Assembly (NCBI GenBank): GCA_018818405.1
Contig: JAHIRY010000038.1
Location: 35,449 to 99,448 of the forward strand
Direction of reading: 5' to 3'
DNA length: 64,000 nucleotides
Source of the DNA: Patescibacteria group bacterium
Lineage (GTDB): Bacteria > Patescibacteriota > Patescibacteriia > UBA11705 > JABHMO01
Part shown: one piece after another, positions 1,061 through 44,080 of the stretch
Layout: each line of letters begins with the position of its first letter
Position numbering within the stretch: position 1 is the first letter of the stretch
Notes under the pieces: model-generated
Databases searched by the model: none
What the model saw: only the letters and a program-made list of their open reading frames with translations
Told to the model about the DNA's origin: nothing
Position numbers and translations under genes: made by a program

Positions 1061-1106
1061 TTCGCTGAGTGTGAATTTCCCACAACAGCGGGCAAGGAGG
1101 TAAACA

Positions 1107-2090
1107 ATGGAAGTCGAACTGTTTCTCGATCAAATTACCAGAGGAATTGAAAGCTACCATGGCGCGAGTCTGCGCCAACTTGATCTTTCAATGCACAAAG
1201 CATTCGATGGCGGTGACGCAGTGCCGGACGAATTGTATGTGGTTGATTTTCCCGGTCTCGGATTGGGACAAGATCTCCTGCTCAACCGCCAACTGTGCGG
1301 CCTGCCTAAACTTCTGAGAATTCAAAAAACAGCGCACACCATGATGAGAACATTCGCGCTGTTTCATCCGGAATTTTTCACCGGTTCGAATCTCTCAGTC
1401 GCACAATTCGTCATTCACTGGGGCGGTCGGCCGATGGATCTGACAATCGCCAACCCGCCGCTGTTCCCGCAGATGATCGATACCTGTCTGCTCAAAATCA
1501 GACGATTTCCACAAGGAGATGATTGGAGAGGAGAACTGCAAGACAAAATCGGCGATTGGTATCAAGACGATCTTTATATCGCGGCTGAAGAATGCTCCGC
1601 ATCCGGCGCGTCATTCGAGTGCTTCGCTGAACTGGCATTTCAGAATCATGTGCCGAAAACGCTGATCGTCTTCCCTGTCTGCTGCAGTCTGGAAGGAATT
1701 CAGCGGCTGCACAAAGTTTGCCTCAAATACAATGTGCGGCTAATCGCTCTGCTCAATTCCGCACTCATCCAAGTAAACCCGATCGGAACAACGCTGCACA
1801 AGACCGATCTCGGTCTTCTGCCGAAAACAGTTGTCACTCGCGAATTTTACGATTTGCTTGATAAGCGATACCAAGGAACTCCGATCTGCTGGGTGGGAGA
1901 CATGGGCGAGAGCATTCACAAAATGCCAAAGCATATTCGAGACATGCTCGCCGATATGCGCAAACTGCAATTTGATCCAAAAAAAGAAAACTGGAAACTC
2001 TGGCCAACCTTCATCAGGGAAGCGCAATTCCAAACAGAACTCCTGCAAAAAGATCCGGAAACATATCGATACTTTCAGGAAATTTTCTAA
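1107..2090 (+). CDS. hypothetical protein (327 aa), GC-rich, divergent from the 29..916 gene
   Basis: strong SD AAGGAGG 7 nt upstream; long ORF; no recognisable domain. Confidence 0.6.
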   Translation: MEVELFLDQITRGIESYHGASLRQLDLSMHKAFDGGDAVPDELYVVDFPGLGLGQDLLLNRQLCGLPKLLRIQKTAHTMMRTFALFHPEFFTGSNLSVAQFVIHWGGRPMDLTIANPPLFPQMIDTCLLKIRRFPQGDDWRGELQDKIGDWYQDDLYIAAEECSASGASFECFAELAFQNHVPKTLIVFPVCCSLEGIQRLHKVCLKYNVRLIALLNSALIQVNPIGTTLHKTDLGLLPKTVVTREFYDLLDKRYQGTPICWVGDMGESIHKMPKHIRDMLADMRKLQFDPKKENWKLWPTFIREAQFQTELLQKDPETYRYFQEIF

Positions 2091-2096
2091 AAAAAA

Positions 2097-20459: not shown

Positions 20460-21308
20460 ATGACGAAAAGGCTTGTTCTGATTGATATTGATAATACTCT
20501 GGTCAACATTGATCTGGGATTTGACGGCTGTTCCGCCGACCAAATAAAAATCGCCTTGAGAAAAGCGATGTCAAGCGGACTGACGATAGGATTGCATTCG
20601 GATCGCCCCGCATTTGACCTGTTCGCGATTCACAAAAATCTGGGACTGAACGGTCCTATCATTGCGGAAAAAGGAAACATTCTTCACTTTCCTCCCAAAT
20701 GGGACATGGAGCCGAATCAAGATCACCGGTTTCTCATGTTTCAATTTCTAAAGACCGAACTTCTGAATATTCTGCTCACCGAATTTTCCGATATTGATGT
20801 ATTTGTCGGCAAAAATCAGAAAATGTTTCGCTTTCTGGCGCAAAACAGGCCGGCTGAAAATCGCAAAATTGTTCTGATCAATAATTACCGAAAGCTGAGT
20901 TTGGCTTTCAATGTGTGCGAGCAAGATCCTGAATCGGAAAATTTGTGCATGAATTTGGTGGAACAAACAGCCAAGATTATTCGCAACTTGTTCACTGCAA
21001 TCTTTGAACAAGAGCCGACAATAGAAATCTATCCGGCGACCAGAGCTTGCATCATCCATCTCCGCGATTCCCACAAACGCAATTCTCTGCCAAAACTCTT
21101 CAGACAATACGGCGCGGGACACAAAATTATTATGATCGGCGATTCGGCTTTTGATTTTCTCGGCAAAGACATCACTCACTGCGCAGTGGAAAACGCATCC
21201 GCCGAATACAAAGCTCTTTGCAACTTTATCGCGCAAAAAGACAGAACCTGCGGTGTGATTGAATGCCTGAAATGGATTCAACGAGGAGGCCACCATGGAA
21301 AAAGATAA
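20460..21308 (+). CDS. HAD-superfamily phosphatase (HAD-IIB/Cof-like)
   Basis: motif I LIDIDNTL (DxDxT), motif IV IMIGDSAFD; SD AAAGGAGG. Confidence 0.75.
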   Translation: MTKRLVLIDIDNTLVNIDLGFDGCSADQIKIALRKAMSSGLTIGLHSDRPAFDLFAIHKNLGLNGPIIAEKGNILHFPPKWDMEPNQDHRFLMFQFLKTELLNILLTEFSDIDVFVGKNQKMFRFLAQNRPAENRKIVLINNYRKLSLAFNVCEQDPESENLCMNLVEQTAKIIRNLFTAIFEQEPTIEIYPATRACIIHLRDSHKRNSLPKLFRQYGAGHKIIMIGDSAFDFLGKDITHCAVENASAEYKALCNFIAQKDRTCGVIECLKWIQRGGHHGKR

Positions 21309-22128
21309 ATTGATTCTCATTGATGTTGACGGAACATTGACCGACGCCTCGTATCAAATCACCGACTCCGGAATCACAAGAAAAATAATGGAAATGCAGA
21401 AACAAGGCTGGACAATCGGGCTGAACTCGGATACGCCGTTTTCTCGTTTGGAAGCAAGAGCGCGGGCTCTTCATTTGAATGGACTGCTCATCTGCGAGCT
21501 GGGCAACAGCATTCATCAAATCAATCCGACGCAACTGATTTGGGAAGAACGGCACAAAGAATCTTTTGCCGAGCTGAATGAAAGATTTCAAGAGGCTGCC
21601 AAAAAATCATTCCCGGAAATAATTCGCAGAGAAAACGACCTGAAATTTTCCCTCGAACGCTTCCGGAATGAATTGCTCCCACACGGATCCGAAATCTGGA
21701 TATTGCATCATGCATCCCGCCGGCACAGCTTTGCGTTTCAGCTGATAAAAAAAACGCCGAGAGGCGACATTTTCGTTGACAGACTCCTCATTCGACTGGC
21801 CGAATGCGCGCAACGGCTTTTCCTCGAAATTTTCCATAAAGAGCCGCTTGCCGATGTGAATCACAAATACGGGGTCTGCATCCTGCATCACAAAGATTCA
21901 CGCAAATCAAAAGCCGCGGCCGCCGTTTTCGCGATCCTCGGCTATGAAAAAATATATATGATCGGAGACAGCATGTCCGACTTTCTCAATCATCCATGCG
22001 TTGTGCAATGCGCGGTCGGCAATGCCTCAATCGAATACAAACGAGAATGCTCCATTGTTGCCAAAAATCACCTCGCCTCAGGTGTAATCGAATGCCTGGG
22101 GCAAATCAAAGAAATGAAAGACGAATAA
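21295..22128 (+). CDS. HAD-superfamily phosphatase, tandem paralog (overlaps the upstream gene by 14 nt)
   Basis: LIDVDGTL, YMIGDSMSD; colinear similarity to the 20460 protein. Confidence 0.75.
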   Translation: MEKDKLILIDVDGTLTDASYQITDSGITRKIMEMQKQGWTIGLNSDTPFSRLEARARALHLNGLLICELGNSIHQINPTQLIWEERHKESFAELNERFQEAAKKSFPEIIRRENDLKFSLERFRNELLPHGSEIWILHHASRRHSFAFQLIKKTPRGDIFVDRLLIRLAECAQRLFLEIFHKEPLADVNHKYGVCILHHKDSRKSKAAAAVFAILGYEKIYMIGDSMSDFLNHPCVVQCAVGNASIEYKRECSIVAKNHLASGVIECLGQIKEMKDE

Positions 22129-22133
22129 ACAAA

Positions 22134-22170
22134 AAAGCGCCGGACAATGTTCCGCCGCTTTTTCATTTTT
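22134..22170 (+). terminator. intrinsic terminator after the HAD pair
   Basis: AAGCGCCGG-ACAATGTT-CCGCCGCTT, T-run. Confidence 0.6.
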
Positions 22171-22269
22171 CGCTGATATTAAATAAACAAATTTCACGCA
22201 TGATTGACGTAAAAAAATGAAAATGATAAATTTCAAATGGAAATAACCTGCGCACAAGGAGGAAAAAGC

Positions 22270-22923
22270 ATGCGCAATGCGAAATTTGTTCCGGTCATTC
22301 TTTTCTTTGCGGCGACCATGTTCGCCGCTTGCACAGACGAAAATGACAATTCGAAAAAAAAAGCAAGCGAAGGTGAAGCAGAATCGGTCGGCTCGATGAC
22401 AATCATTTCCATGCCGGTGGAAGACGCGGAAATCATTCTCAATGAAGAGGAAACCGGCCACCGCACGCCGCAGACTTTTCACAATCTTTCGCTCGGTCTT
22501 CACCAAATAGAACTGAAACTCGCCGGTCGGCGGCAAGCTGATATTCCGCTGGCGGTTTCTCTGACCGCCAAGGAGGAAGACTCCGATACTCCGCAATTAT
22601 TGAATGTTGAAATTTTCCTGTACCGAGAACTCTCGGGGGGATGGAAAGATGAATCCGGCGCGCGCGTCGAGGCGGAAATGGAAATTGTGACCGAGGAATA
22701 TGAATATCTGTGTCCTGACACGCCGCTCAGCGTTCGCGGATTCGATCCTGTCGGATCGCTCTGCGTGGAAAAAGACGATACGCTCTCACTCTGCAAAACG
22801 CATGACGCGAAATGCGGCGAGCAGTTTGCTCAAGGCAGGATCGCTGATGACGGCAATGTCGTGGAATTCACGGTAGCCGAATCTGAAAAAGTGATTCGCT
22901 ACACCAGACTCCCGACAATGTAA
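22270..22923 (+). CDS. lipoprotein with PEGA-like beta-sandwich domain (ORF from 22237; SD indicates the 22270 start)
   Basis: signal plus lipobox FAAC; MTIISMPVEDAEIILNEEETGHRTPQTF...HQIELKL PEGA-like pattern; paralog of 24046. Confidence 0.7.
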   Translation: MRNAKFVPVILFFAATMFAACTDENDNSKKKASEGEAESVGSMTIISMPVEDAEIILNEEETGHRTPQTFHNLSLGLHQIELKLAGRRQADIPLAVSLTAKEEDSDTPQLLNVEIFLYRELSGGWKDESGARVEAEMEIVTEEYEYLCPDTPLSVRGFDPVGSLCVEKDDTLSLCKTHDAKCGEQFAQGRIADDGNVVEFTVAESEKVIRYTRLPTM

Positions 22924-22954
22924 TCCGCGCGCAAACGCGCAATCAACTGAAAAA

Positions 22955-22990
22955 CCCGCGAACGCGCAGAGCGTCGCGGGAATTTTTTTT
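22955..22990 (+). terminator. intrinsic terminator
   Basis: CCCGCGA-loop-TCGCGGG hairpin, T8. Confidence 0.6.
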
Positions 22991-23030
22991 AAGTGAAACT
23001 ATTTATAAACCTGCGCCCCGATCAGCGAAA

Positions 23031-23250
23031 CTACGACGACAGCAGACTCTGAATCGAGTTCAGAGTGACAGGTGTGGGGCGCGAATTACTAACAATTGCA
23101 ATGAACCTCGAATAGTTGCCACAGTTTCGCAAATACGCAAATGCACAGTTACTCTTACTCCGTCGTCGGCTCTCCCATCGTCACTCTGAACTCGATTCAG
23201 AGTCTGCTTCCGGTTCGCTTAGTCGATTCGCTTACAATGTCGTCATCGCG
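23031..23250. repeat. palindromic repeat family R4, units a (inverted) and b (direct) (core CGTCACTCTGAACTCGATTCAGAGTCT plus ~45-nt tail)
   Basis: 23045-23069 and 23178-23250 are mutually inverted copies; core is itself a 9-bp-stem hairpin. Confidence 0.8.
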
Positions 23251-23267
23251 CAACAACTCACATACCG

Positions 23268-23573
23268 CTAATTCCACGTTGCGCTCAAATCTTCAAAATT
23301 AGGATTTTCCTTTTTTATCAAATCAATTTTCCACGGCCGATGCCATCGCTTCAATTGTTTTTCTCTGGCAATGGCAGAATACACATCCGTAAAATCCTCG
23401 TAATAAACTAATTTTTGTAAACAATAACGAGCGCTGAATGAATTTGGATTGTATTTATTTTTGTGTTCCCACAAACGCCGCTCAACATTGTTCGTCACGC
23501 CAATATAAAAAACCGTATTCCTTGTGTTTGTAATAATATATACATAATAATTACGTTGAACAAATTTTCGCAT
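23268..23573 (-). CDS. small GIY-YIG nuclease (YhbQ/COG2827-like)
   Basis: YVYIITNTRNTVFYIGVTNNVERRLWEH GIY-YIG core; 101 aa; paralog of 33838. Confidence 0.8.
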   Translation of the reverse strand: MRKFVQRNYYVYIITNTRNTVFYIGVTNNVERRLWEHKNKYNPNSFSARYCLQKLVYYEDFTDVYSAIAREKQLKRWHRPWKIDLIKKENPNFEDLSATWN

Positions 23574-23676
23574 ATCATTTTTTAAATCATGCTAACTAAT
23601 ACTTTCAGAATAGCACAATTTTTTTTCGACCGGAATAAACAACGAAACAATCGCGCCTTCGTTCAGCGAAACTTCC

Positions 23677-23905
23677 GACGCTAACAGACTCTGAATCGAG
23701 TTCAGAGTGACGGGGTGCGGCGCGTCGTCTCATCATCATCATGATTATCCTCGTCACTCTGAACTCGATTCAGAGTCTCCCTCCGGTTTCACCTAGTCGG
23801 TTCCGCTACGACAGCGTCCGCCCGCCCCTCCTCATCGTCACTCTGAACTCGATTCAGAGTCTCTTTTCGGTTTCGCTTAGTCGATTCGACTGCAACGGCG
23901 TCGCG
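23677..23905. repeat. repeat family R4, units c (inverted), d and e (direct, tandem)
   Basis: 23677-23712, 23749-23819, 23833-23905 share the CGTCACTCTGAACTCGATTCAGAGTCT core and tail. Confidence 0.8.
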
Positions 23906-24045
23906 AAACATTCGTCTGCCGTGTACAGGCGTCACAAACGCAAACATTCCCGTAAATTTACACGCAACCTTGACAAAAACCAAAGCAAATGATATATTCG
24001 GCATAGAAAGAAATCACATGGCGATTTAAACAAGGAGGTGTAGCC

Positions 24046-24756
24046 ATGAAGACGAGAACCATGTTTCTCTGTGTCCTGTTCCTTTTTTTGACAACCGTAG
24101 CCGCATCCTGCGGCGAAGACCCCACCAACGCGCCGGGCGAAGGCGAAGGCGAAGGCGAAGGCGAGGGTGAAGGCGAGGGCGAAGGCGAAGGCGAGGGCGA
24201 AGGCGAGCAGCTCGGCTCGCTTACCGTCACCTCCGCGCCGCACGACGGCGCGCAGATCATCATGGATGGCGTGGACACCGGATTCGTCACCCCGCACACG
24301 TTCGACGAGATCAGTGTGGGACGGCACGAGGTCGAGCTCAAGCTCGACGGCCGGATCCAGGCCTACATCCCGCAGGAGGTCGTCCTGACCTCCGGCAAGG
24401 AAGACAGCACCGTGCCGCCAAGCGCCACGGCCGAAATCTTTCTGTATCTGGATCTGACGGGAAAATGGTATGAAGCGGAAATAAATCGGACGACCGAAGC
24501 AGTGGTTTTCCCAAGTGCCAGACTCCAACAACCGGAAATCTCCTGCCCAACCACGGAGATGGCGGCAGGCAAATTTCCCCTATACAACACACTGTGCATC
24601 GAGAGAGACGACTCTCTCTCTCTCTGCAAAGACCATGCCAGCGACTGTTATGGAGCCGAAGTCCGCGGCTCCGTTCAGGAAAACGGCACGAAGATCGAAG
24701 TCACAGATTTCTTTTTTTCTCCGCCGAGGGTACTACACTACACTCTGGTGCAGTGA
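24046..24756 (+). CDS. PEGA-domain lipoprotein paralog with (GE)13 low-complexity linker, strikingly GC-rich (~60%)
   Basis: signal plus lipobox AASC; LTVTSAPHDGAQIIMDGVDTGFVTPHTF aligns colinearly with the 22270 protein; SD AAGGAGG. Confidence 0.75.
   Translation: MKTRTMFLCVLFLFLTTVAASCGEDPTNAPGEGEGEGEGEGEGEGEGEGEGEGEQLGSLTVTSAPHDGAQIIMDGVDTGFVTPHTFDEISVGRHEVELKLDGRIQAYIPQEVVLTSGKEDSTVPPSATAEIFLYLDLTGKWYEAEINRTTEAVVFPSARLQQPEISCPTTEMAAGKFPLYNTLCIERDDSLSLCKDHASDCYGAEVRGSVQENGTKIEVTDFFFSPPRVLHYTLVQ
24136..24207 (+). repeat. (GGCGAA/GGCGAG)n hexanucleotide tandem repeat encoding (GE)n
   Basis: about 11-12 tandem hexamers seen directly. Confidence 0.85.
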
Positions 24757-24794
24757 ACTGCTCTATAGTGTAGTAGCATTTGGCCAATCAAAAA

Positions 24795-24826
24795 CTCCCA
24801 CCGTCAAGAACGGTAGGAGTTTTTTT
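24795..24826. terminator. bidirectional intrinsic terminator between convergent genes
   Basis: CTCCCACCGT-CAAGAA-CGGTAGGAG, T7. Confidence 0.65.
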
Positions 24827-24831
24827 AATTG

Positions 24832-27800
24832 CTACGGTAATACTATAATTTTTCCATCGAAAGAAGTCCCCGGCTCTCCGTGCTCATCCAGTGGATCACA
24901 CAATGGAAAATCACCTTCATTATAACACCCATCCGCACCCCCGCACGTCCCATTACACCACCCCCAATTATCCGTCACAATCACCCGCGGAATATACTGG
25001 CAGGCGGGATTGCCTTGGTATGTTGTTCTGCAGTAATTCGGGTCTGCGCCGGCAGTGCCGCAATCCTTCAAAACAGGATCAGACAAATTACAAGTATAAG
25101 TATTATTGTAAGAGAAATACGATTCCATGCATGCATCAGTCGTGTCGCCGAAACGATCATCCTTTTGATCGGAACATTTCCCGGTGAAGAAACATCTGCT
25201 CGGATCGCTTCCCTCTTCACATCGCGGATCGTCAGCATCATAGCACGCGGAATCATCAGAGCAAGCCAGACCGGAAACTCCGTTGCATATTCCCAACGGT
25301 TCATTGGCCGGTCTCTGACATCGAGGCTTATGATTTTGGTACTTTCCATCAACGCCCACTCCCTGAACTCTCTCACCCCAATCGATCGTCACATTTCTTA
25401 TCGGCATCTGATCATCATTCGCCCAAGCATAGAAATTCATTGTCACTGCCAACTGACCATCCAGACTTACAATATCGCCGCTCGTCTGTCCGCGAATGGT
25501 CATCGTATTGGGAATAGCGCCATACAAAACATTTCCTTTCGCGTCAGACCTGCCACTGGGTATTGCGGCCGCAATCATCGGAACACCGACTTTTTGCTCA
25601 TTACTGATATCCCAAATTTTATTAGGATTATTCAAGTAGCCTATTCCATCGGCATTGCTCGGAATGTTAATAATATTTGAGCAGGATGCGCTCGGATCGC
25701 TTTTCATTTCCGGAGGATTTGTCGCGACCACTTCTTTTAGAATAACCGTGCCGACATACCCAAATGGAGTATGCTCATATTTTTCTATTGGGCAACTATT
25801 ATTCTCCAATGTCCTGCCGACATAACATTCCGCAGATATTTCCTGCTGTGCAAAGTTATAACTGTCTATGAAAAGCCAATGTTCTGCCAAAATGCTCCGA
25901 TCAGCTTTCTGCCATATGCAATTCGCCTCATTGCGTTCAATATTTGGCAAATTGGCAGTGCAATAAACACGATTTCCAGCATTGCCGACTACCGGAGCGG
26001 TATTCACACATTCGGTATCCCAGAAGCAAGGATTGCCGGAATTCGCTCCCGATTGATTATTGCAATGGCGAAGAGTAAGAATATTGCATTCCAACGGATA
26101 TTGAGCGGTTGTACAAACATTTGAATCACTGGTGCAAGACAATCCGTTTATTTCAGGATGAATGCTGGTGCAGGTTTTTTCTTCAATATTTTGAATTTTC
26201 ATTTCGTAATAAGTCTTTGCCGCAGCAAAATACTTTTTCAAAGCATCAATACTTTGATAAACAATTCCGCCCTCAGGATAGTTCTCTTCCTGATTGCACC
26301 CAGCACCCAAAAATAAATTGTAAATAGTCTCGCCAATACCGCCCGTCAATGCCAAGGCTCCAAGCGGATTGCACTTTGGCTGATCAGGAATTTGAACGGA
26401 TTTATAAATTTCATTAGTAAATGCTTTGTTTTTTCCATTCTCATCGGATACTCCGACAGCAGTATCACAGCTTTGCTTTGATATTTCGCCGATCGCCGCA
26501 TTCGTATTGCCGGCTGCATCCTTGTACCAGCCAGCCGATTGATCAGCGGGCATATTTATCGGTTTACATTGATATGTCATTTTAAACCAATCTTCATCCT
26601 CTAGGCTACACTCATCTGTAGCGCCATCATGGTCGAATATACCGCCATCATGTTCGAATGAATTCGCTCCGCCGATATTATAATTCTTATCACAACTGGG
26701 ACGTTCAAACTTCTCGCCACCGCAATCTCTGGTCCAACAAGATGCTGTATTTCCAATGCCTCCAAACGGATCAGTATTCGCATTAATTGTTCCGGCTGAA
26801 ACATTGGAGCTTCCCACCAAGCGATCCCATAATTTGTCCGCTGTCCACCGAGTATAAACATTTGGATTGCCGCTCACGCAAGCGGAACCGTTTCCATCGC
26901 ATTCTATTCCGGCAGTACTGGAAGCTAGGCCGGCCGGCAAACAATTTTCACGAACTTCTTTTGTTTCTCCATTACACGCATCCAGAGCCCCTCCATCGCA
27001 ATCCCTATACCCTTCTTCCGTTTGATTATAATTCTGTCTCTTTTCCCAATTACTGCTTTTCAGACAATAGTAAGGACTGCCATCGCTAAATCCATAATCT
27101 TGCGGCCAGAAGCCGGCGGAATCATATTGATTCTGCAAATCCTGCAATCCGGCCAACGCTTCCGTCGGATACCAAGTAATGCAAGGATGTTCTTCTTGTT
27201 TGTTATTTTTCGGCAGACTGATGTCCTCTTGCAGACAATATCCTTCCCAGCCATGATAATCTATGGCAGTGCCTTTCTTTTTCATGCATAACCCCGGTTC
27301 ATTTCCTTTTGAGATAGGTTTTGAAGAATTGAGAGAACACTGGATAGAAGAACACATTGTTTTATTATTTATCTTTACCATGGGAGAACTATCAATTTGC
27401 GGATAATCAAAATCATCGCACTGACATTGAATATCAGGTGAATCCTGACAAAAGCCTTGTTCCGGATCTGCTGGCGAATATAATTCTGTTTTCGGCACAT
27501 ATTTTGTGATCGCCCCACCACCATATTGAACCTCTCGATAATAACAACCGTAGTCTTCATTTTTATTAATTTCCGCAAAATCCACATCCAGCCAAGAAAT
27601 ATTCGCGTTTACGTATAAATCAGTGCCTGCAATACCGGCTGGAAACGGCGAATCATCCTTCGGATAAGCACGGCATTCCGGAGCTGCAGCTTCTTGAAAT
27701 GTTCTTTCTGATTCCGAGGTCTGCACACAAATTCCACTCAAACATCGACAATTTTCTCCGCTTGGATTTGCAACAGTACAAGCATCCGTGCAATCACTAT

Positions 27801-30800
27801 CCTGTTCACAAGAGGTATCGGTTAATTGATTTACCAATCTAAAATCTTTTTCTTTATAAACTTGCCCGCGAACTTCTTCACAACTAACGACTGCCTCAAT
27901 CCTGCAAATATTGCCTAAGGAAATGCAGTTTCGTCCTCCGCTACAATCATCGGCTGCTTCGCAACGGCCATATTCTCTTTCTCCACCGCAATAACTTCCG
28001 CAATCAGCATCCGTGGAACACAACCCTTCGTTCGGATTACCAAAACAATATTGTTGACCGCAATCATTGTCATTCACACAAAGATTGCCTGAAGTTACTC
28101 CTCCGCATCTCTTGTCCGGTTCAACCCCGCGTCCCTGCCTCAAATCAAAAGAATTATAAAAATTTACCGGCGCCATATCCGGAATCGCCATTCCGGTATA
28201 ATCGAGCGAAGACCAGCTGACATTTCTATTCTGATAACCGTCAGTTTCATCCGTTCCCTTCAAAGGTTTGTTCAATGACAATAAATTATTATTATCTTCA
28301 CCGACAATGAAATGCGCGCACTTCAATGTATCTTCCGCCGGACTGAGCTTGTCGCAAACTCCGACATCATCGCAAACCTCAATATATTTATTTTTATTCG
28401 AATCCCACGCCCAGTGACTGGACTTGCAATCGTACCAAGCCGCGCATTCGCGATCGCGGACGACTTTTACTATGGAATTCGCATCATTTTTTGAAGCAAT
28501 CAATTCAAATGTACAGGCAATCTGTCTATCAGTACATGTATTAATCTGCTCGGCGCGCGCTTCTCCTGCGCAAGTCAAATAATCTTTTTCAGCATTCACA
28601 CAAGATTCGACTTTTTTACAATAATCATCTTCAGTACAATCACCCACCCGCCCCAGAGCATAACTATCAAACGTCGAAGCATTCTTTGGCGGAACAGCAC
28701 TTTGTTTATCATTTCCTTCAAAATATGTTAAATATCCCTGCCATTTCAAATCAGGTTCGCCATTGGCATTTAACATAGAGGTATCATTCATCAAAATACA
28801 ACCTTCTTTACGACTGACATCTGAACAGGAAGTCTTGTCTATGTCTTCATTATTAACATAATAATAAGCTTTTCCTTTGTCTGACAAAGTTTTATCAGTG
28901 GGATCCACGAACGCGGTGCACAAATCCGCGCTTGACTTGCAGATACCGGCCCAGCCTGAGAAATCTTCATCATTTATTCGAATAATCTGCGAATTTCCAT
29001 CTTCATAATAATTCTTTGTCTCGCATAGTACATCCGGATCATTATCATTCAGTTTCTTTTTGAACCATCCAAATATACTCTCAGAACCTTGCTGAGCTTT
29101 TCTGTATTCGCAAGTTTTATCACCCGGATCCTTAAAATAATAAGTTTCACCTTTTACTCCCTTGAATTCCTCACATCTCAAATCACTATTAGCGCACAGA
29201 GGACTGTTCTCACTATCAAAAGTATCAGGATCCAGTTTGTAAAATACATTGTTCCATTTGTCCTGGGATGGAATATAATTCCCCTCAGCATCCACCATCA
29301 AAGTCGGCAATCCCAGAGCCGTACAACCCTTTTCCGTGTTTTTACATTGTTTATCTTTTGTGTTAACGAGATAAATCAATGAATCTTTTTCTATTTCTTG
29401 AAGGTAGCAGACACCATCGTTCCAATTTCCATCCAAATAACCACACATGTTTTCATAAGTCTGTGAAAGAGCGGGAGGTTCACCGCCAACCTTTGCACGA
29501 ACTTGGAATGTACATGCTTGCAAATTTTCATTCACAACGGCTGCAGTTCCCGGTATCTGGAAAAAATTATTCGTTGGAACTGCCTCCCATTTACTCATAT
29601 AAGAGGAACACAATTCAACATTCAACGGAATTTTCTTGTATCCTTGTTCAAATGGAGACGAACTGTTCTTCGTATCAATCATCGTCTCGCAACCGACCTT
29701 GTCAGCCGAACAGATATTGGTAAAGTTTTTCAGATAATGAGTATTCTTGCCGCTGTCGCGATATTCGCGGCAACCCAGCTGAGCTTGCGGAATTTGTCTG
29801 TCAGCTTCATTTGCCGGAGTATGGGTCAGCTCATTGTCGCAGATCGCCGGAGTACTCCATGAATTTTTGATTAAATATTTGAGATCATTTACTTTTGTGA
29901 TTTTGAAATTGTCGATGTAAAAAGTTCTTTCGCACTGGGACGCGCGTATGCCTATAACACCGGAGGCATAAGTCTCATCCACACTCAAATTAAAAGTATG
30001 AAACTGCCAATCAGCATTAACCGTGCCGTCACCCAATAAAAATTTTCGATCTCCGGTGTTTATATTTTCAACCGGCCTCACATCAACATTGAAATTCGTG
30101 GGATCGCCTTTGATCCAAAAAGAAACAACATAATCACCGACTGCTGATAAAAGCGCATTTTTTGTATATATTCTTGGTGATTCAACACAACTCAATCCCT
30201 CAATCCCGTTAACAGACTCTATTTCAGTCTTCTCTTCCACCATTAAATACTGCCCATCCGCTTGTGTCGTAAGCGACATTGGACTTCCTTGCAAACTAGT
30301 TACCTCTCCGGTCGCAAAATTATTCTCATAAACAATTTCCTCATCACCGCTGAAATTGCCTTTGTATTCTCTGCAGCCGGCGGCAGGCGCTGAACATTTC
30401 TTGCCTTCGCCCGGAATTGCCATGAAAACGCATTCGCCAGTGTTCCACTGCCCCTGCCTCAGTTCGCATTGAGCCTGATCCGCGTATTGCAATGTTCGGC
30501 GATAAGGATGACAATTTTCCGAACAAGTCAGAGTCTTTGAATACAAACGATAAGAAACTCTGCCGGCATCATCGTAAAATTCACGGCAGTCGGGATTTGA
30601 TTTTACAGCGAATATTTCCGCGTTGCACCGGGTTAGATTTTCTTCCTCTGCAATCGTCATTGCCGGAGCATTTCCTCCGAGTTCTTTTTTCAATACATAA
30701 TTCTGCAATTGATAACCGGAAACTCCGCCTCCGACCCAAGTATAATAATTGGCGCACTGAGCCTCGCCCTCGGGAAGTTTCTGGCATTGCCTCAATTCGG

Positions 30801-33753
30801 AATAATATTCTTTTGATTCTCCGCCTCGCGACAATTCATCCAGATTGGTAAATTCATCGCATCCGGCGCTGGCCGCGCTGCAAGTTTTTGCAGTATTCGG
30901 CATGAAATAAAGCGGAAACTCTCCATTTTCAAAATAAGTTTTCGACTGGTTGAATGTCGCATAGCCAGCGCATTGCTGAGGACAATAATCCGCGAATCCG
31001 GCAACGCCGTTGATAGCGCGTCCGCGATCAGTCGGCGTGAAATTCTGACAGCCGACATCTTCGGCAGAACAAAGTCCGGCAAAATCAGAACAGCCTTTGT
31101 TTTTCTCGGTTTTTACCGCATCATCGGAAACATCAATATCAGCCTCAGTCTTCGGCCTGCCATAATCCGCCTCTTCAATTGTATTGTAGCAACCCAAATA
31201 TTCAGGCGCTTTTTTCACATAAACAACATTCTGGCTGGCATATTCATTGAATTCATGCATTTCGGAAATTGCCGGCAGAGAAAGTTCCTCAACCATTACA
31301 TTGTCCACGATCGCGTCTCCGCCGGCCACAGCCAATTGAAATTGCAACTTGTCAAGTACGATTGGATTCGCTCCGGTCGATACTTTCACTTGCCAAATTT
31401 TATAAATTTTTTCCCAGCTGTCCGTTGCTGTCGCCGCTGTAATATCTTTATTGGCAACAGCTGACATGGCCAATCCATCTGCATCGGGAGCAACCAATTC
31501 GATCACTGCCGACGCATTGGCCTGTTTCTTTTTCACAAACCCGGAAACCGCAAAATATCGGGCTGTTTTCTTTGGCGCGATTTCAATATTCGGAATAATT
31601 AAATTTTCCAAAGCGGCTAATTTAACGGCCGCTCCTCCTTCATAAGACTCGGAAACCACATTTTTCCCGCCCGCCCAGCCGGTGACAATGTTCGTTGATT
31701 GCAATTCATCAATTCTCCCTGAAAAAATTTCAAAATCTCCGTTTACCACCAGATTCGTTCCCAATCCGCTCGCTGTTTTCACAAATCTCGTGCAACCCTC
31801 TTGATTCGGATTGCATTGCGCGTTTTCGATATTTTTATTCAATAAAATTTTTGAAGCATCCGCGTCCACCCAATTCCAAGAATTATCCGCCAATATTTTC
31901 TCAGTGCTGTACCACTTGCAACCCGCGTTCGTCGCGTCGCAAACCGATCGATCGACAGTGTTCATCACCAAATTAACGGATTTTCCCTTCCTCATCTGCA
32001 AAGAACGGCAACTGTCATAAACGCCCGAACATTCATCTCCGCCCAATCGGAAAACATTTTTCTCAGCCGCGCAATATCCCCAGGAAAGACACTTGCCCTT
32101 TGCATCAGTGCGCACACAGCTCGGCATATCAACGCAGACTTCAGCTCGAGTGTTCGAACCCGCGTCAATCAACAATGGTCCGTTAACCAACGCATTGCAT
32201 TGCGTTGCCGGATATTTCAAAATCCAATTCGGATCAATCAACTGCCTGAATTTATAACCCGCGTCATTTGGATTAGTTTGATTGAATTGACTGATTACAT
32301 AATTCAATGAGACAACTTCTTCCGAACCAACCTGACTGGCGGCAAGCTCCCAGCCGATTGGAATTATTCTCGCTGTTCTCAGTTTCACCAAATTGGAATA
32401 ACAAAAACCGTATTGATAGCAATCGGCATTGGAATTTCTCGCATCATACTTTCCGATCAAACGGCGCTTGCCGTCAATCAGTCCCTGATCAATGGCCTCC
32501 TGCACTGACAGCGGCTTGTCCTGAGTTGAACGGCGAACAGCATCGGCAAACGCATTATCCATGACGCAATTGTTTATCTGCCTTGTCCGGGGACAAGAGG
32601 TATATTCAGTCAATAAATCAATTTGCTTGGTGGAATAAGTGAAATTAACCTGCTTTATTTTTATTACGTCTTTTTCCACCTGCTTTTTCGTATCAAACAT
32701 ATTGTCAGCCGGCTGATAACTCTCCGAAGTTTGCACCAATCCCTTTTCAAAAAACTTCTTGCTCATGAAGTCAACAAATCCTTTTGAAATAAAAGTATTA
32801 ACAAAAGCGCCGATTACCGATTCCGGTATATCGGAAATCACATAACTGGCCGGTTCCATTTCAGTATTCTTCGCCTCGGTAATTGCTTGCAGTTCGTTTG
32901 TCATGTGTCCGCGCAAAAGGAAAGAAGGCGTTTTTATAATATCGCCACTCAGACTGGTTATCGCCTTTGCTCCTAAATTTTCCGTTCTTTGCTTTTCTTC
33001 CGCCATGCTTGTAATGCGCTGTTGTCTCTGCAATTCATCTTCCATTGTCAGATACATCCCGATGTCAGAACTTTTGCGATCAAACTTCACTTCAATGATT
33101 CTCTGCAATGCGATAAGAGTACCGGCGGCCGGATTATCAGAAATATTATCAGCTGTTCGTTTAACATCCTCGACAAATGATTCCCAATTATCTAACAAAT
33201 TACTTAAAGAACAATCCGGTTTTACCCTTGTTTTATCTTTTAGATATTGATTATCCAAACCAATAACGATTTTCAATTTTACATCAGCTCCGGGATCGCA
33301 AATATCAAATCCCAAATCATCCCAAAATACATCTCTGACATAGGTAATGAATGTCGCTGCCGTGTAATCCATTATATCCTGCTTGAATTTTTCCCACGAC
33401 TGAGTGTAAAACATCGGTCCCTCGCCCTTGTCGCCGGTAGTGACAAAATTATAATATTGAGACGCCGCTGTTTGCGCCAGAAAAACCATAGTATTGCGCA
33501 AAGTAATGGCTGCGGATAAAATCAATGCTTTCTGCAAACGATTTTCCACATTTTTTTGAGTTTTATCAACCGTTTTCTCAATGTTGCGCTTGACTTCAAA
33601 ACCCATATCCTGCGCATTTTTAGCGGGATCAATGACCGGCAATTCAGCGCGAGCCTCTCGCGGGAACAACATGCCGGCAGCAATGAAATTTGAAAACGCA
33701 AAACAAAACACCAAAATCGCGATTGATATTTTTTTGTTTTTATTTAAAGTCAT
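24832..33753 (-). CDS. giant (2973 aa) Cys-rich secreted/surface protein with CBM4/9-like beta-sandwich segments
   Basis: uninterrupted 8.9-kb ORF; N-terminal signal/TM; many Cys; NGDFE...GW CBM-like blocks. Confidence 0.85.
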   Translation of the reverse strand: MTLNKNKKISIAILVFCFAFSNFIAAGMLFPREARAELPVIDPAKNAQDMGFEVKRNIEKTVDKTQKNVENRLQKALILSAAITLRNTMVFLAQTAASQYYNFVTTGDKGEGPMFYTQSWEKFKQDIMDYTAATFITYVRDVFWDDLGFDICDPGADVKLKIVIGLDNQYLKDKTRVKPDCSLSNLLDNWESFVEDVKRTADNISDNPAAGTLIALQRIIEVKFDRKSSDIGMYLTMEDELQRQQRITSMAEEKQRTENLGAKAITSLSGDIIKTPSFLLRGHMTNELQAITEAKNTEMEPASYVISDIPESVIGAFVNTFISKGFVDFMSKKFFEKGLVQTSESYQPADNMFDTKKQVEKDVIKIKQVNFTYSTKQIDLLTEYTSCPRTRQINNCVMDNAFADAVRRSTQDKPLSVQEAIDQGLIDGKRRLIGKYDARNSNADCYQYGFCYSNLVKLRTARIIPIGWELAASQVGSEEVVSLNYVISQFNQTNPNDAGYKFRQLIDPNWILKYPATQCNALVNGPLLIDAGSNTRAEVCVDMPSCVRTDAKGKCLSWGYCAAEKNVFRLGGDECSGVYDSCRSLQMRKGKSVNLVMNTVDRSVCDATNAGCKWYSTEKILADNSWNWVDADASKILLNKNIENAQCNPNQEGCTRFVKTASGLGTNLVVNGDFEIFSGRIDELQSTNIVTGWAGGKNVVSESYEGGAAVKLAALENLIIPNIEIAPKKTARYFAVSGFVKKKQANASAVIELVAPDADGLAMSAVANKDITAATATDSWEKIYKIWQVKVSTGANPIVLDKLQFQLAVAGGDAIVDNVMVEELSLPAISEMHEFNEYASQNVVYVKKAPEYLGCYNTIEEADYGRPKTEADIDVSDDAVKTEKNKGCSDFAGLCSAEDVGCQNFTPTDRGRAINGVAGFADYCPQQCAGYATFNQSKTYFENGEFPLYFMPNTAKTCSAASAGCDEFTNLDELSRGGESKEYYSELRQCQKLPEGEAQCANYYTWVGGGVSGYQLQNYVLKKELGGNAPAMTIAEEENLTRCNAEIFAVKSNPDCREFYDDAGRVSYRLYSKTLTCSENCHPYRRTLQYADQAQCELRQGQWNTGECVFMAIPGEGKKCSAPAAGCREYKGNFSGDEEIVYENNFATGEVTSLQGSPMSLTTQADGQYLMVEEKTEIESVNGIEGLSCVESPRIYTKNALLSAVGDYVVSFWIKGDPTNFNVDVRPVENINTGDRKFLLGDGTVNADWQFHTFNLSVDETYASGVIGIRASQCERTFYIDNFKITKVNDLKYLIKNSWSTPAICDNELTHTPANEADRQIPQAQLGCREYRDSGKNTHYLKNFTNICSADKVGCETMIDTKNSSSPFEQGYKKIPLNVELCSSYMSKWEAVPTNNFFQIPGTAAVVNENLQACTFQVRAKVGGEPPALSQTYENMCGYLDGNWNDGVCYLQEIEKDSLIYLVNTKDKQCKNTEKGCTALGLPTLMVDAEGNYIPSQDKWNNVFYKLDPDTFDSENSPLCANSDLRCEEFKGVKGETYYFKDPGDKTCEYRKAQQGSESIFGWFKKKLNDNDPDVLCETKNYYEDGNSQIIRINDEDFSGWAGICKSSADLCTAFVDPTDKTLSDKGKAYYYVNNEDIDKTSCSDVSRKEGCILMNDTSMLNANGEPDLKWQGYLTYFEGNDKQSAVPPKNASTFDSYALGRVGDCTEDDYCKKVESCVNAEKDYLTCAGEARAEQINTCTDRQIACTFELIASKNDANSIVKVVRDRECAAWYDCKSSHWAWDSNKNKYIEVCDDVGVCDKLSPAEDTLKCAHFIVGEDNNNLLSLNKPLKGTDETDGYQNRNVSWSSLDYTGMAIPDMAPVNFYNSFDLRQGRGVEPDKRCGGVTSGNLCVNDNDCGQQYCFGNPNEGLCSTDADCGSYCGGEREYGRCEAADDCSGGRNCISLGNICRIEAVVSCEEVRGQVYKEKDFRLVNQLTDTSCEQDSDCTDACTVANPSGENCRCLSGICVQTSESERTFQEAAAPECRAYPKDDSPFPAGIAGTDLYVNANISWLDVDFAEINKNEDYGCYYREVQYGGGAITKYVPKTELYSPADPEQGFCQDSPDIQCQCDDFDYPQIDSSPMVKINNKTMCSSIQCSLNSSKPISKGNEPGLCMKKKGTAIDYHGWEGYCLQEDISLPKNNKQEEHPCITWYPTEALAGLQDLQNQYDSAGFWPQDYGFSDGSPYYCLKSSNWEKRQNYNQTEEGYRDCDGGALDACNGETKEVRENCLPAGLASSTAGIECDGNGSACVSGNPNVYTRWTADKLWDRLVGSSNVSAGTINANTDPFGGIGNTASCWTRDCGGEKFERPSCDKNYNIGGANSFEHDGGIFDHDGATDECSLEDEDWFKMTYQCKPINMPADQSAGWYKDAAGNTNAAIGEISKQSCDTAVGVSDENGKNKAFTNEIYKSVQIPDQPKCNPLGALALTGGIGETIYNLFLGAGCNQEENYPEGGIVYQSIDALKKYFAAAKTYYEMKIQNIEEKTCTSIHPEINGLSCTSDSNVCTTAQYPLECNILTLRHCNNQSGANSGNPCFWDTECVNTAPVVGNAGNRVYCTANLPNIERNEANCIWQKADRSILAEHWLFIDSYNFAQQEISAECYVGRTLENNSCPIEKYEHTPFGYVGTVILKEVVATNPPEMKSDPSASCSNIINIPSNADGIGYLNNPNKIWDISNEQKVGVPMIAAAIPSGRSDAKGNVLYGAIPNTMTIRGQTSGDIVSLDGQLAVTMNFYAWANDDQMPIRNVTIDWGERVQGVGVDGKYQNHKPRCQRPANEPLGICNGVSGLACSDDSACYDADDPRCEEGSDPSRCFFTGKCSDQKDDRFGDTTDACMESYFSYNNTYTCNLSDPVLKDCGTAGADPNYCRTTYQGNPACQYIPRVIVTDNWGWCNGTCGGADGCYNEGDFPLCDPLDEHGEPGTSFDGKIIVLP

Positions 33754-33781: not shown

Positions 33782-33860
33782 GTCGCACTTCGACAAGCTC
33801 AGTGTGACAGGGGGGGGGAAGCGCCCCCTCTCACTTGTCAGGCTGAGCCTGCCGAAGCCC
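33782..33860. repeat. repeat family R5 (inverted unit, G9/C5 hairpin, partial direct unit), downstream of the GIY-YIG gene
   Basis: GTCGCACTTCGACAAGCTCAGTGTGAC, AGGGGGGGGGAAGCGCCCCCT, CTGAGCCTGCCGAAG. Confidence 0.75.
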
Positions 33861-34143
33861 CGTTCGACAACTCCTTCAATCTTTCAATATTCCCCTCAAT
33901 TAATGCAACTTTCTTTCTGCGGCTCCAACCTTTTATTTGTTTTTCTCTGGCGATCGCGTCATTCACATAATAATGTTCTTCCGCATATACCAATCGAACC
34001 GGCCGCCGCGAATATGTATAACTTTTTTCGCTTATTCCCAAATTATGTTCATCCAGCCTTCGTTCAATATTATTTGTTATTCCCGTATACAAACTCCGAT
34101 CGCTGCATTCAACTATATAAACCGTGTATATCTTTCTAAACAT
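33838..34143 (-). CDS. small GIY-YIG nuclease, second paralog (ORF to 34167; likely start is MFRKIY at 34143)
   Basis: YTVYIVECSDRSLYTGITNNIERRLDEH GIY-YIG core; C-terminus is read through the R5 repeat. Confidence 0.8.
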   Translation of the reverse strand: MFRKIYTVYIVECSDRSLYTGITNNIERRLDEHNLGISEKSYTYSRRPVRLVYAEEHYYVNDAIAREKQIKGWSRRKKVALIEGNIERLKELSNGASAGSA

Positions 34144-34160
34144 TTGCAATAAACTTTTAT

Positions 34161-34311
34161 GTCGCACTTCGGCAGGCTCAGTGTGACATGAATTTAACTG
34201 TCACACTGAGGCTAAAAGCCTGTCCCGAGTCGCATCGAGCGGAAGCGTGCTATCATCGTCATCGCAATAACTGTCACACTGAGCCTGCCGAAGTGCCGCT
34301 TCGCTTAACAC
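34161..34311. repeat. repeat family R5: one inverted and two direct units (GTCACACTGAGCCTGCCGAAGTGC...TTCGCTTAACAC)
   Basis: 34161-34187 (inverted), 34200-34222, 34273-34311; 11-bp stem between the first two. Confidence 0.8.
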
Positions 34312-42766: not shown

Positions 42767-44080
42767 TTACATCATTTTTCGTCGAATAAATGCCGGGATT
42801 TCCAGATCTTCATCATCATTTGAAAGCAAATCATCATTTGAAGAATTCGACTCCTCCTGTTTATATCTGCTAAAATCATCCAACTGCGGCGGTTGTTGCC
42901 TCGGTTGTTGTTGCGGTTGTTGCTGAGGTTGCGGTTGCTGTTGCGGCTGTTGCGCCGGTTTTTCCGGCCGGCGGAAATCAAACAACGGTCGTTCTTCTTC
43001 CCGTTCCTTTGGCGCCGGAATCGGTTCTTCGCGAGGACGGATAGGAGCCGCAAAAAAATTCGGCGTTGGCTGTACCGGCTGAGAATTGGAATTTATTTTC
43101 GGAACAGATGAGAACGAAGCGGGAGATTTTTCATCAAATCCGGTTGCCACCACAGTCACTTTTATCTGCTCCTTTAAATTTTCATCAATAACCGCGCCAA
43201 AAATGATTCTCGCGTCATTGTCAGCTGATTCTGTGATTGTCTTTGCCGCTTCGCTCACTTCATACATAGACAAATCCGGTCCACCGGTGACTGTAAACAA
43301 TATTCCTTTCGCGCCTTCTATGGAAATTTCCAAAAGAGGACTGGCGATCGCGGCTCGCGCCGCTTCGACCGCGCGATCATCACCGCCCGCTTCGCCGATT
43401 CCCATGAGCGCTGAACCGCTGTTTTCCAAAATTGTTCTTAAATCAGCAAAATCAATATTGATCAAACCGGGCAGAGTGATCAATTCGGAAATTCCTTGCA
43501 CACCCTGACGCAGAACTTCATCCATAACCATGAAAGCCTCGATGAGCGGAGTTTTTTTGTCTATAATCTGCCAAATCTGATCATTGGGAATTGTTATCAA
43601 AGTATCCACTTTTCCTTTGAACTCTTTTAATGCTTCTTCCGCGATTTTCTTTCGCGGCGCGCCTTCAAATGAAAACGGTCTGGTCACTACCGCGATTGTA
43701 AGAGCTCCGATCTCTCTGGCAACTTCCGCGATCTTCGGTCCTGCGCCGGAACCTGTTCCTCCGCCCGCCCCGCATGTAATAAAAACCAGATCAGCGCCTT
43801 CCAATGCTTCTTTAATTTCCATTTGCGATTCTTCGGCCGCTTTTCTACCGATACTCGGGTTCATGCCAGCGCCCAATCCTCGGGTCGTCCCCTTTCCGAT
43901 GTGAATTTTATTTCCAGCCAAATTTGCATAGAGAGCTTGCAAATCATCATCCACAACAATAAATTCAACCCCTTTAATGCGAGATTGAATCATTCGATTA
44001 ATTGACGCTCCGCCAGCCCCTCCCACGCCCACTACCTTGATTCTGGCAAATGTTTGTATTTCCGGTTTTACTTCTGGCAT
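42767..44080 (-). CDS. ftsZ: cell division GTPase FtsZ with Q/P-rich C-terminal linker
   Basis: GVGGAGGASIN, tubulin signature GGGTGSG, C-terminal QQPQ repeats. Confidence 0.95.
   Translation of the reverse strand: MPEVKPEIQTFARIKVVGVGGAGGASINRMIQSRIKGVEFIVVDDDLQALYANLAGNKIHIGKGTTRGLGAGMNPSIGRKAAEESQMEIKEALEGADLVFITCGAGGGTGSGAGPKIAEVAREIGALTIAVVTRPFSFEGAPRKKIAEEALKEFKGKVDTLITIPNDQIWQIIDKKTPLIEAFMVMDEVLRQGVQGISELITLPGLINIDFADLRTILENSGSALMGIGEAGGDDRAVEAARAAIASPLLEISIEGAKGILFTVTGGPDLSMYEVSEAAKTITESADNDARIIFGAVIDENLKEQIKVTVVATGFDEKSPASFSSVPKINSNSQPVQPTPNFFAAPIRPREEPIPAPKEREEERPLFDFRRPEKPAQQPQQQPQPQQQPQQQPRQQPPQLDDFSRYKQEESNSSNDDLLSNDDEDLEIPAFIRRKMM

Follow-up and report, generated by a model that had tools for sequence, protein, structure and literature searches.

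A GC-enriched PEGA-domain lipoprotein gene of a Patescibacteria genome as a probable resident member of a small surface-lipoprotein family

A stretch of 64,000 nucleotides (nt) from a Patescibacteria group bacterium (assembly GCA_018818405.1, contig JAHIRY010000038.1, positions 35,449–99,448 of the forward strand) was analyzed; this 64-kb stretch is called the window below and all coordinates refer to it unless another locus is named. The window is a core chromosomal stretch, encoding MraY, MurD, FtsW, FtsA, FtsZ, NrdD, HisRS, LepB, RF1, KsgA, MiaA and bL27. It contains two related genes for lipoproteins with a PEGA domain, namely P1 and P2, and the latter is strongly enriched in guanine and cytosine (GC). 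The data presented here allow us to assume, with moderate confidence, that P2 is a resident, vertically inherited member of a small surface-lipoprotein family of Patescibacteria (candidate phyla radiation, CPR) and that GC-richness is a trait which this family has kept.

The features of the locus are listed in Table 1. The promoter-like site upstream of P2 is a prediction made by consensus match only (11 of 12 consensus positions); the motif TTGACA was also read directly upstream of the orthologous loci L002, L037 and L038 (here and below, L-numbers denote loci or contigs and P-numbers with four digits denote relative proteins). A lipobox was found in P2, and the same type of pattern, with the cysteine within about 35 residues, was found in 15 of 19 family members. 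Modeling with AlphaFold 2 (AF2) gave a mean predicted local distance difference test score (pLDDT) of 83, with residues 1–55 disordered (below 50 for residues 1–21), followed by two folded beta domains. The first of these has the expected PEGA beta-sandwich fold, with block-mean pLDDT mostly above 90 (83–98) and weak matches to transthyretin-like and CnaB-type domains. The PF08308 score was 29.4 bits for P2 and 20.8 bits for P1, which is exactly the Pfam gathering threshold (20.8). The second, barrel-type domain carries four cysteines that are invariant in the family (C167, C184, C194 and C201). No Pfam or NCBIfam match other than PEGA was found in P2. An identity as an MliC/PliC lysozyme-inhibitor lipoprotein was considered and rejected, the family models giving no sequence match. 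Neither an Lgt nor an LspA gene lies within the window.

A MEGAHIT contig from the European Nucleotide Archive (ENA), L001, is 100% identical to P2 over the full gene, including the repeat number, and runs on into the neighboring giant gene; this assembly may stem from the same reads. The exact P2 protein is not present in a collection of 15 billion proteins and was found only as a gene call on L001; the GenBank record may lack an annotation of P2 or contain another gene call for it. P1 is present in that collection under an NCBI accession, being identical to the 228-aa (amino acid) form MBU1132395.1 (‘Patescibacteria group bacterium’). P2 is an uncharacterized PEGA-domain lipoprotein with a repetitive tether and is otherwise ordinary.

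Table 1. Features of the P1–P2 locus, in window coordinates (GC3, GC content at third codon positions)
Feature	Position	Strand	Description
Whole window			GC 43.6%
P1	22270–22923	+	217-aa paralog, short tether containing KKK; GC 51.2%, GC3 0.55; no adjacent partner gene
Inter-paralog block	23019–23902		Two inverted-repeat elements resembling miniature inverted-repeat transposable elements (MITE-like), solo hairpin repeat, GIY-YIG gene
MITE-like units	~23019–23244 and 23660–23818		
Solo hairpin repeat copy	23832–23902		
GIY-YIG gene	23268–23573	−	101 aa; Pfam 1.4e-16
Promoter-like site of P2	23970–23998	+	TTGACA, 17-nt spacer, TATATT, TG before −10; predicted
Shine-Dalgarno sequence AAGGAGG	24032–24038	+	7 nt ahead of ATG; read from sequence
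P2, PEGA lipoprotein gene	24046–24756	+	Intact open reading frame (ORF), 236 aa; whole-gene GC 58.5%, GC3 0.70
P2 signal peptide, lipobox VAAS/C (Cys22)	24046–24111	+	PROSITE PS51257-type pattern
P2, 5' two-thirds	24046–24444	+	GC 63.9%, GC3 0.80
Hexamer tract	24136–24207	+	12 tandem hexamers coding (GE)12, residues 31–54: 7 GGCGAA, 4 GGCGAG, 1 GGTGAA
P2, non-repeat part	24208–24444	+	GC 65.4%, GC3 0.886
PEGA beta-sandwich	24211–24450	+	Residues 56–135; Pfam PF08308, 7.3e-7; AF2 strands
GC3 change point	24433	+	After codon 129, last strand of PEGA domain; two-segment fit, 0.806 to 0.570
P2, 3' third	24445–24756	+	GC 51.6%, GC3 0.57
C-terminal beta-barrel-type domain	24460–24747	+	About nine predicted strands; GC3 ~0.57, above window background
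Shared bidirectional terminator of P2 and giant gene	24793–24826 (core 24800–24814)		Hairpin and T-run (A-run on the other strand); read from sequence
Convergent giant partner gene	24832–33753	−	2973 aa, Cys-rich; C-terminal domain ...CQYIPRVIVTDNWGWCNGTC...GKIIVLP

The base composition of P2 was compared with that of the other genes of the window. The background for GC3 consisted of 14,116 windows of 79 codons taken from 33 other long ORFs, P1 included; its mean was 0.448, with a standard deviation (sd) of 0.071 and a maximum of 0.709, and the non-repeat part of P2 (0.886) lies about 6 sd out. The PEGA stretch was the most GC3-rich, reaching 0.87–0.93 in 30-codon windows, and the likelihood of the synonymous codons of the GC-rich segment under the usage of the window was below those of all 1,423 background windows. 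The change point of GC3 inside the gene had a log-likelihood ratio of 7.8, which 14 of 5000 permutations reached, and its peak is broad (about 24400–24460); the codons GAG, AAG, CAG, GAC and CGG prevail before approximately 24430, and GAA, AAA, TAT and GAT prevail after it. An earlier reading made from the sequence alone (the sequence-only reading) had put the first two-thirds of P2 at about 60% GC, and the measured value is 63.9%. Its figure of about 48% for P1 was lower than the value found here, and its limit of under 40% for core genes was too low, since the other long ORFs of the window have 39–53%. The GC3 comparison of the two paralogs, which it had proposed, set 0.80–0.89 for the 5' part of P2 against 0.55 for P1. 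The second most GC3-rich stretch of the window is a 304-aa ORF on the minus strand (29–943; no Pfam match; GC 52.8% and GC3 0.57 for the whole gene, with a 79-codon peak of 0.71).

Relatives of P2 were sought with a profile among 1.8 billion representatives and, in addition, by word index. Together, these searches gave about 18 single-stretch proteins of 179–263 aa and one fragment of 120 aa; most of the top matches of the PEGA hidden Markov model were long multi-PEGA proteins. DNA was obtained for twelve family genes from at least nine lineages. Wherever flanks were present, the lipoprotein gene was located tail-to-tail with a gene for a partner protein ending in the Cys-rich domain ...CVF.P.V..DNWGWCNG.C...GCY...F.G.IVVP. 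Such positional orthologs, convergent with the same partner domain, were found in at least seven lineages (the loci L027, L029, L031, L032, L035, L037 and L038). In the window, L037 and L038, the partner is a giant protein of about 3000 aa; it is a large protein cut by the contig end in L027, L029 and L031, and only a 166-aa protein in L035. The locus L032 contains two tandem lipoprotein paralogs, one beside a cut-off giant and the other beside a 358-aa protein, and the two partner C-termini of this duplicated module are nearly identical. In L037, the giant gene is followed by a homolog of the next gene of the window and then by KsgA, as in the window; in L038, it is followed by the next-gene homolog and then by the contig end. 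Between the window and these two loci, the giant proteins are 29–32% identical, the next-gene products 33–35% and the lipoproteins about 36% and 26%, respectively. Neighboring proteins that are only about 30% identical between lineages at a conserved position indicate that the inheritance of the locus is old and vertical.

The GC enrichment was found to be common to this family. All 12 genes were GC3-enriched over their own neighbors, on a background of 38–55% GC; the GC fraction of the family genes was 0.51–0.63 and their GC3 0.54–0.78, with neighbor GC3 of 0.27–0.59. The tether-plus-PEGA part had a higher GC3 than the barrel part in 10 of the 12, and both parts exceeded the neighbor GC3 in all nine genes for which the latter was measured. 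In orthologs from other lineages, the region matching the 5' part of P2 had a GC3 of 0.83–1.0. P2 is the extreme of this family pattern and P1 is its least enriched member. The prevailing shift at third positions was T to C, accompanied by one from A to G. At four-fold degenerate sites, the proportions of A/C/G/T were 0.12/0.42/0.32/0.15 in the family and 0.19/0.28/0.27/0.26 in the neighbors. The share of CTC among leucine codons was 0.53 (neighbors: 0.11), that of TTG 0.06 (0.34) and that of ATC among isoleucine codons 0.72 (0.24). The G-ending share of glutamate, lysine and glutamine codons was 0.41–0.65, being lower in P1 and L002 (0.19 and 0.36), and 0.21–0.43 in the neighbors. The suggestion of the sequence-only reading that P2 is a gene under unusual mutational pressure thus applies in a broader sense, namely to a pressure acting on the whole family in every lineage. 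At L038, a 620-aa Big_7 (Ig-like) protein is encoded upstream of the lipoprotein (233–2095, plus strand) with a GC3 of 0.81 (0.56–0.59 for the giant and next genes); in some lineages, other surface-protein genes may thus share the enrichment.

The same reading had offered a recent acquisition from a foreign source as an explanation of the GC-richness, and this explanation was not supported. The composition of P2 is atypical for the window, but positional orthologs are present in relatives, with neighbors about 30% identical (L037 and L038), and the proteins closest to the GC-rich part of P2 were P1 (50% aa identity) and then P0023 (46%), P0028 (43%) and P0001 (42%), so that the nearest sequence is located in the same genome and not in a foreign lineage. 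The best nucleotide match to the 5' part of P2 (69–70%) was the positional ortholog L002, and no DNA relative closer than approximately 70% was found. A scan of GTDB (representatives of 185,579 species) with the family alignment revealed generic PEGA domains of unrelated phyla only and no full-length relatives, and two scans of metagenome contigs, in a collection that does not seem to include the relevant samples, confirmed no further relatives. Since the relatives at the same position in distant genomes are also GC-enriched, a recent foreign origin cannot be read from the GC-richness. The gene has kept its position while its neighbors diverged to about 30% identity, which means that its synonymous sites were replaced many times; an imported composition would have decayed in this time, and the GC-richness must therefore be actively maintained.

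The process that maintains it may be linked to recombination: homologous recombination or gene conversion would occur frequently at a surface-protein gene that evolves fast and as a mosaic; this is the first-ranked explanation, and we hold it tentatively, at somewhat less than even confidence. Either repair itself or a more effective selection could be the source of the GC bias. For most bacteria, a positive correlation between genic GC and recombination has been described (PMC4450053; PMC11879095). Signs of mosaicism were found in L002 and L034, two near-identical strains of a sister lineage. Over 272 nt upstream and 130 nt downstream of the gene, the two do not differ, whereas the gene itself shows 30 substitutions and a difference of one GE hexamer. 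The differences are all located in four clusters (codons 32–35, 87–100, 120–121 and 142–152); counted apart from the hexamer, the substitutions form three tight patches. In several codons, each of the three positions is affected, so the pattern looks like short-patch replacement rather than point mutation. In addition, a leader of 52 aa is near-identical in the protein pairs P0150/P0157 and P0159/P0161, with no difference at all among three of the four proteins; after it, the identity falls well below half, with 43% over the full length. The GC3 step inside P2 could then be a mosaic junction, or else the edge of a faster-evolving C-terminal domain that drifted toward the composition of the genome.

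A number of observations weigh against this explanation. No recombination event has been demonstrated in this organism, and the sole other assembly of P2 is identical. The window contains no silent cassettes or extra copies of P2; only P1 is related (33–35% aa identity). At four-fold sites, C is enriched more strongly than G, and the effect is specific to particular codons, namely CTC and ATC; selection on certain codons would fit this better than a symmetric bias of repair. The near-consensus promoter-like site and the strong Shine-Dalgarno sequence would fit high expression, and the test against translational selection consists of one ribosomal gene of 93 codons (bL27). It is also disputed whether biased conversion (PMC4450053) or more effective selection (PMC11879095) causes the correlation between GC and recombination. 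Finally, the putative functional link between P2 and the giant protein was drawn from gene order.

A search for a donor paralog of the variable patches, using the word index and P0153, gave only P0001. The 3' end of the convergent giant gene is also patchily divergent between the two sister-lineage strains (L002 1127–1169; L034 1271–1535), including a 9-nt indel. In L034, copies of a different hairpin repeat, CCCTGAAACAAGTTCAGG and GTCACCCTGAGGTTCTCGAATGGGTGAC, are located on both sides of the lipoprotein gene, and upstream, both loci contain CTCGAGAGCCTCGCCACGACATAA as four tandem repeats of 24 nt. A conversion between the paralogs P1 and P2 was rejected as a candidate, the nucleotide identity being 40–67% throughout with no tract of high identity. 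The 5' similarity of the two L032 paralogs is suggestive and not decisive, because biased codon usage inflates the number of shared codons.

Translational selection was ranked second, and we consider it unlikely, although it is the strongest competitor of recombination-linked enrichment. According to this explanation, the lipoprotein would rank among the most abundant proteins in these cells, and its codons would be held at a largely C-ending optimal set of the clade in every lineage, with the 3' part of P2 and the whole of P1 being faster-evolving or less expressed copies. A conserved expression level would indeed give a family-wide, lineage-independent bias. The shift is mostly from T to C at third positions, with NNC/(NNC+NNT) of 0.61–0.79 in 10 of the 12 genes (0.47–0.50 in P1 and L002) and 0.24–0.49 in neighbors. 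It is specific to codons, CTC being raised together with ATC and CTG not, and both the predicted promoter and the AAGGAGG sequence point in the same direction. The C-terminal part of P2 is also the most divergent part of the family (26–36% identity). However, bL27, the sole confirmed ribosomal protein gene, has a GC3 of 0.47, with 4 NNC against 9 NNT and 5 NNG against 13 NNA codons, and FtsZ does not show such usage either. Codons ending in G are also more frequent for Glu, Lys, Gln, Thr, Ser and Arg (CGG), an increase that would not be expected for optimization at 44% GC. The change of the bias inside single genes, as in the step within P2, also argues against translational selection as the full explanation. 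The ORF 59782–60066 was considered as a further ribosomal reference and was not used, as it had no Pfam match.

A narrower form of import was also weighed, in which a GC-richer relative recently donated the 5' 390 nt of P2 from its own ortholog through homologous recombination, displacing the resident 5' part and leaving a mosaic junction at about 24433. The sharp change in codon style near 24430, the high GC3 of the same region in orthologs of other lineages, the existence of mosaic alleles in the family and the presence of repeats and a GIY-YIG gene just upstream of P2 would all agree with such an event. Nevertheless, no donor-like sequence was found, the best nucleotide match being the positional ortholog mentioned above, and at the protein level the segment is closest to P1 of the same genome. 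The 3' part of P2 is also above the background, and the excess of 5' over 3' GC3 in 10 of the 12 family genes means that no special event is needed in P2. This event is therefore regarded as improbable.

It is still less probable that selection acts on the nucleic acid itself, i.e., that the GC-rich 5' part is kept for transcript stability, for structure, or as R-loop-forming or G-rich DNA in a strongly transcribed gene that faces against nearly all of its neighbors. The persistence of the bias across lineages could be explained in this way, the coding strand of (GGCGAA)n is rich in purines and G, and the region, which has a uniformly negative GC skew and mostly minus-strand genes, contains few genes on the plus strand, P1, P2 and two HAD-hydrolase genes among them. 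However, the predicted folding of 24130–24440 was no better than that of shuffled sequences (z −1.6), no credible Rfam match was found over 22000–25000, and the GC skew of P2 outside the repeat was about 0, unlike the value of 0.52 for vls (PMC11499132). Long antisense frames are present, but they are explained by the avoidance of TTA, CTA and TCA codons; an overlapping antisense gene was rejected for the same reason, although the open frames span up to the whole gene in some orthologs.

The last candidates, an assembly chimera of the GC-rich segment and a target of a diversity-generating retroelement (DGR), hardly come into question: the sequence is derived from a metagenome, other assemblies are fragmented beside the gene and PEGA domains have been reported among DGR targets (bioRxiv 10.1101/2020.04.01.020958), but the second assembly is identical through both segment edges, the composition pattern recurs in independent samples and lineages, the window has no reverse transcriptase among the long ORFs scanned against Pfam and no template repeat, and the differences between L002 and L034 hit third positions and whole codons without being adenine-specific.

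A bolder version of the recombination-linked explanation is that a locus-specific GC-enriching process, with patchwise turnover, has worked on a single surface-lipoprotein gene ever since the family arose, holding it near 60% GC in genomes of 38–55% GC. This is doubtful, at about the level of translational selection. Such a process could be a recombination or gene-conversion hot spot at a strongly transcribed, opposite-facing gene paired with a giant adhesin-like protein.

The hexamer tract was analyzed separately. The estimate of about 12 tandem hexamers in the sequence-only reading was accurate, and its (GE)13 linker is corrected here to (GE)12. Tandem Repeats Finder gave a period of 6, 11.8 copies and a score of 114; the tract is interrupted and its longest perfect run is four units. 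It encodes most of a 33-residue tether (residues 23–55, GEDPTNAP(GE)12Q), which is disordered in the AF2 model. An acidic low-complexity tether after the lipobox cysteine is a family trait: it is 30–36 residues long in 9 of 11 scored members, and in all 11 it contains 5–16 Asp/Glu residues and no Lys or Arg. The repeat unit is GE in three lineages and of the DA/DG type in others; since the unit differs by lineage while length and charge are kept, the tether has been rebuilt repeatedly through local expansion.

The idea that the tract is variable in length was supported indirectly. The window and the ENA contig L001 both have 12 hexamers. The one-hexamer difference between L002 and L034 indicates that such tracts do slip, and a 7-residue duplication was found in the linker of one protein of the P0150/P0157/P0159/P0161 lineage. 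The description of the locus as contingency-type was an overstatement. A unit of 6 nt inside an ORF keeps every length change in frame, so that length cannot switch the frame; the tract has no long uninterrupted run, no on/off promoter switch is evident at P2, and most tethers are kept at 30–36 residues. Slippage would add or remove whole hexamers and shift the tether by two residues per step, within the family range of approximately 30–36. The tract is best described as a bounded, length-drifting spacer rather than a contingency switch. Another in-frame low-complexity repeat is located in ftsZ (42767–44080, minus strand) at 42885–42954, with periods of 6, 9, 12 and 24 and GGTTGC-type units when read on the plus strand; in the protein, it is close to the C-terminus, roughly at residues 376–399 of 437, after the FtsZ_C domain.

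Judging by gene order and by the modeled fold, in which a lipid anchor and a tether of about 33 residues precede two small beta domains, P2 may be a binding module tethered to the membrane. P2 probably acts at the cell surface together with the C-terminal domain of its partner, as the conserved convergent arrangement suggests, and could, for instance, keep the giant protein a fixed distance away from the membrane. In the simplest model, the lipoprotein would bind or process the DNWGWCNG...IIVVP domain and thereby hold the giant surface protein at the membrane. A second giant gene in the window (48489–56957) lacks the DNWGWCNG domain. Within 48489–58913 (minus strand), this second giant (2822 aa) adjoins a 642-aa protein with a T4SS-pilin (type IV secretion system; TrbC/VirB2-like) N-terminus and a Big_5 domain, and genes similar to TrbL, TraG, TraC and PrgI were found near the lipoprotein locus in L031 and L037.

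A comparison with known systems indicated several partial similarities. P2 exceeds the Pfam gathering threshold for the PEGA domain of surface and S-layer-associated proteins (PF08308) and the corresponding beta-sandwich was modeled; it differs from these proteins in combining a single PEGA domain with a lipobox, an acidic repeat tether and a cysteine-braced barrel. The Neisseria proteins TbpB, LbpB, fHbp and Lip/H.8 (with AAEAP repeats) are surface lipoproteins with low-complexity tethers and a handle-plus-barrel body. The likeness of P2 to them is one of generic fold, with no sequence relationship, and the host belongs to Patescibacteria and is not a diderm pathogen, so membership in this group is not claimed. 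The Vlp and Vsa proteins of Mycoplasma are size-variable lipoproteins with in-frame tandem repeats; P2 likewise has in-frame repeats in a lipoprotein, with a length difference between strains (one unit, in an ortholog). However, the P2 repeat is a short interrupted tether of 12 units and not the bulk of the protein, and no on/off promoter switch is evident. Simple-sequence contingency loci are phase-variable genes of Haemophilus, Neisseria and Campylobacter. P2 shares with them a slippable short tandem repeat in a surface-protein gene, and differs in having a 6-nt unit and an interrupted tract with at most four perfect units.

The Borrelia vls cassettes have 49% G+C in a genome of 28.6% (PMC11499132). 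Like vlsE/vls, P2 is a surface-lipoprotein locus that is GC-richer than its genome, and variation in short clustered patches was seen in the orthologs L002 and L034 only. Unlike vls, which has an array of silent cassettes and a coding-strand skew of about 0.5, P2 has no cassettes in the 64 kb and a skew of about 0 outside the repeat. The family also resembles recombination-associated GC enrichment in bacteria (hypothesis of GC-biased gene conversion, Lassalle et al. 2015, PMC4450053; selection view, PMC11879095), in that a gene showing signs of intragenic recombination has a higher GC3 than its genome, independently of optimal-codon usage. It goes beyond the reported genome-wide correlations in the increase in GC3 of 0.10 to 0.34 in one family, in its deep persistence and in the asymmetry of C over G.

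The gene and its flexible tether are ordinary otherwise; the unusual feature is a GC enrichment that is replicated across lineages. P2 gives reason for caution with composition-based calls of horizontal gene transfer, being 6 sd off the GC3 of its genome and yet old and resident. The twelve family genes, in genomes of 38–55% GC, provide a replicated example of a bacterial gene whose base composition is set by something besides mutation bias. They also point to a conserved two-gene surface module in Patescibacteria, composed of a PEGA-barrel lipoprotein and a DNWGWCNG...IIVVP partner, often of about 3000 aa. To our knowledge, cell-surface biology and host attachment in Patescibacteria are almost unknown. 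If a locus-specific GC process does operate here, it would offer a natural test case for biased gene conversion versus selection in bacteria, and it might provide surface variation without cassettes in episymbiotic CPR cells.

The paralogs P1 and P2 bracket a GIY-YIG block, as recognized previously, and the coordinates given for the two genes were confirmed (Table 1). P1 and P2 are 33% identical by BLASTP (E 4e-40); P1 has the shortest tether in the family, which contains lysine, and the weakest GC bias, and it may be a decaying or re-purposed copy. Within the 64 kb, the hairpin repeat CTCTGAACTCGATTCAGAG is confined to the block, where it occurs in five copies (none expected by chance). The break points of two further public assemblies fall in these repeats, L001 starting at 23822 and L003 ending at 23205. 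The environment of P2 includes no integrase or transposase; the MITE-like repeats and the GIY-YIG gene lie upstream and the conserved partner lies downstream. A weak, sub-threshold match of the GIY-YIG protein to TIGR01453 (group I intron endonucleases) was found, with 23 bits against a cut-off of 56 bits. A second stand-alone GIY-YIG gene (109 aa) is located at 33838–34167 on the minus strand, so that the two genes bracket the module of P2 and the giant. The GIY-YIG/MITE-like block occupies the position at which L032 (166–2922) has the 358-aa partner between its two lipoprotein paralogs, which suggests the loss or replacement of a partner gene here.

Two tandem HAD-hydrolase genes (20460–21308 and 21295–22128, overlapping by 14 nt) are on the plus strand, like P1 and P2. 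From 11 kb to 62 kb, nearly all other genes are on the minus strand and the GC skew is negative throughout. If this skew marks the replication strand, P1, P2 and the HAD-hydrolase genes are transcribed head-on to replication.

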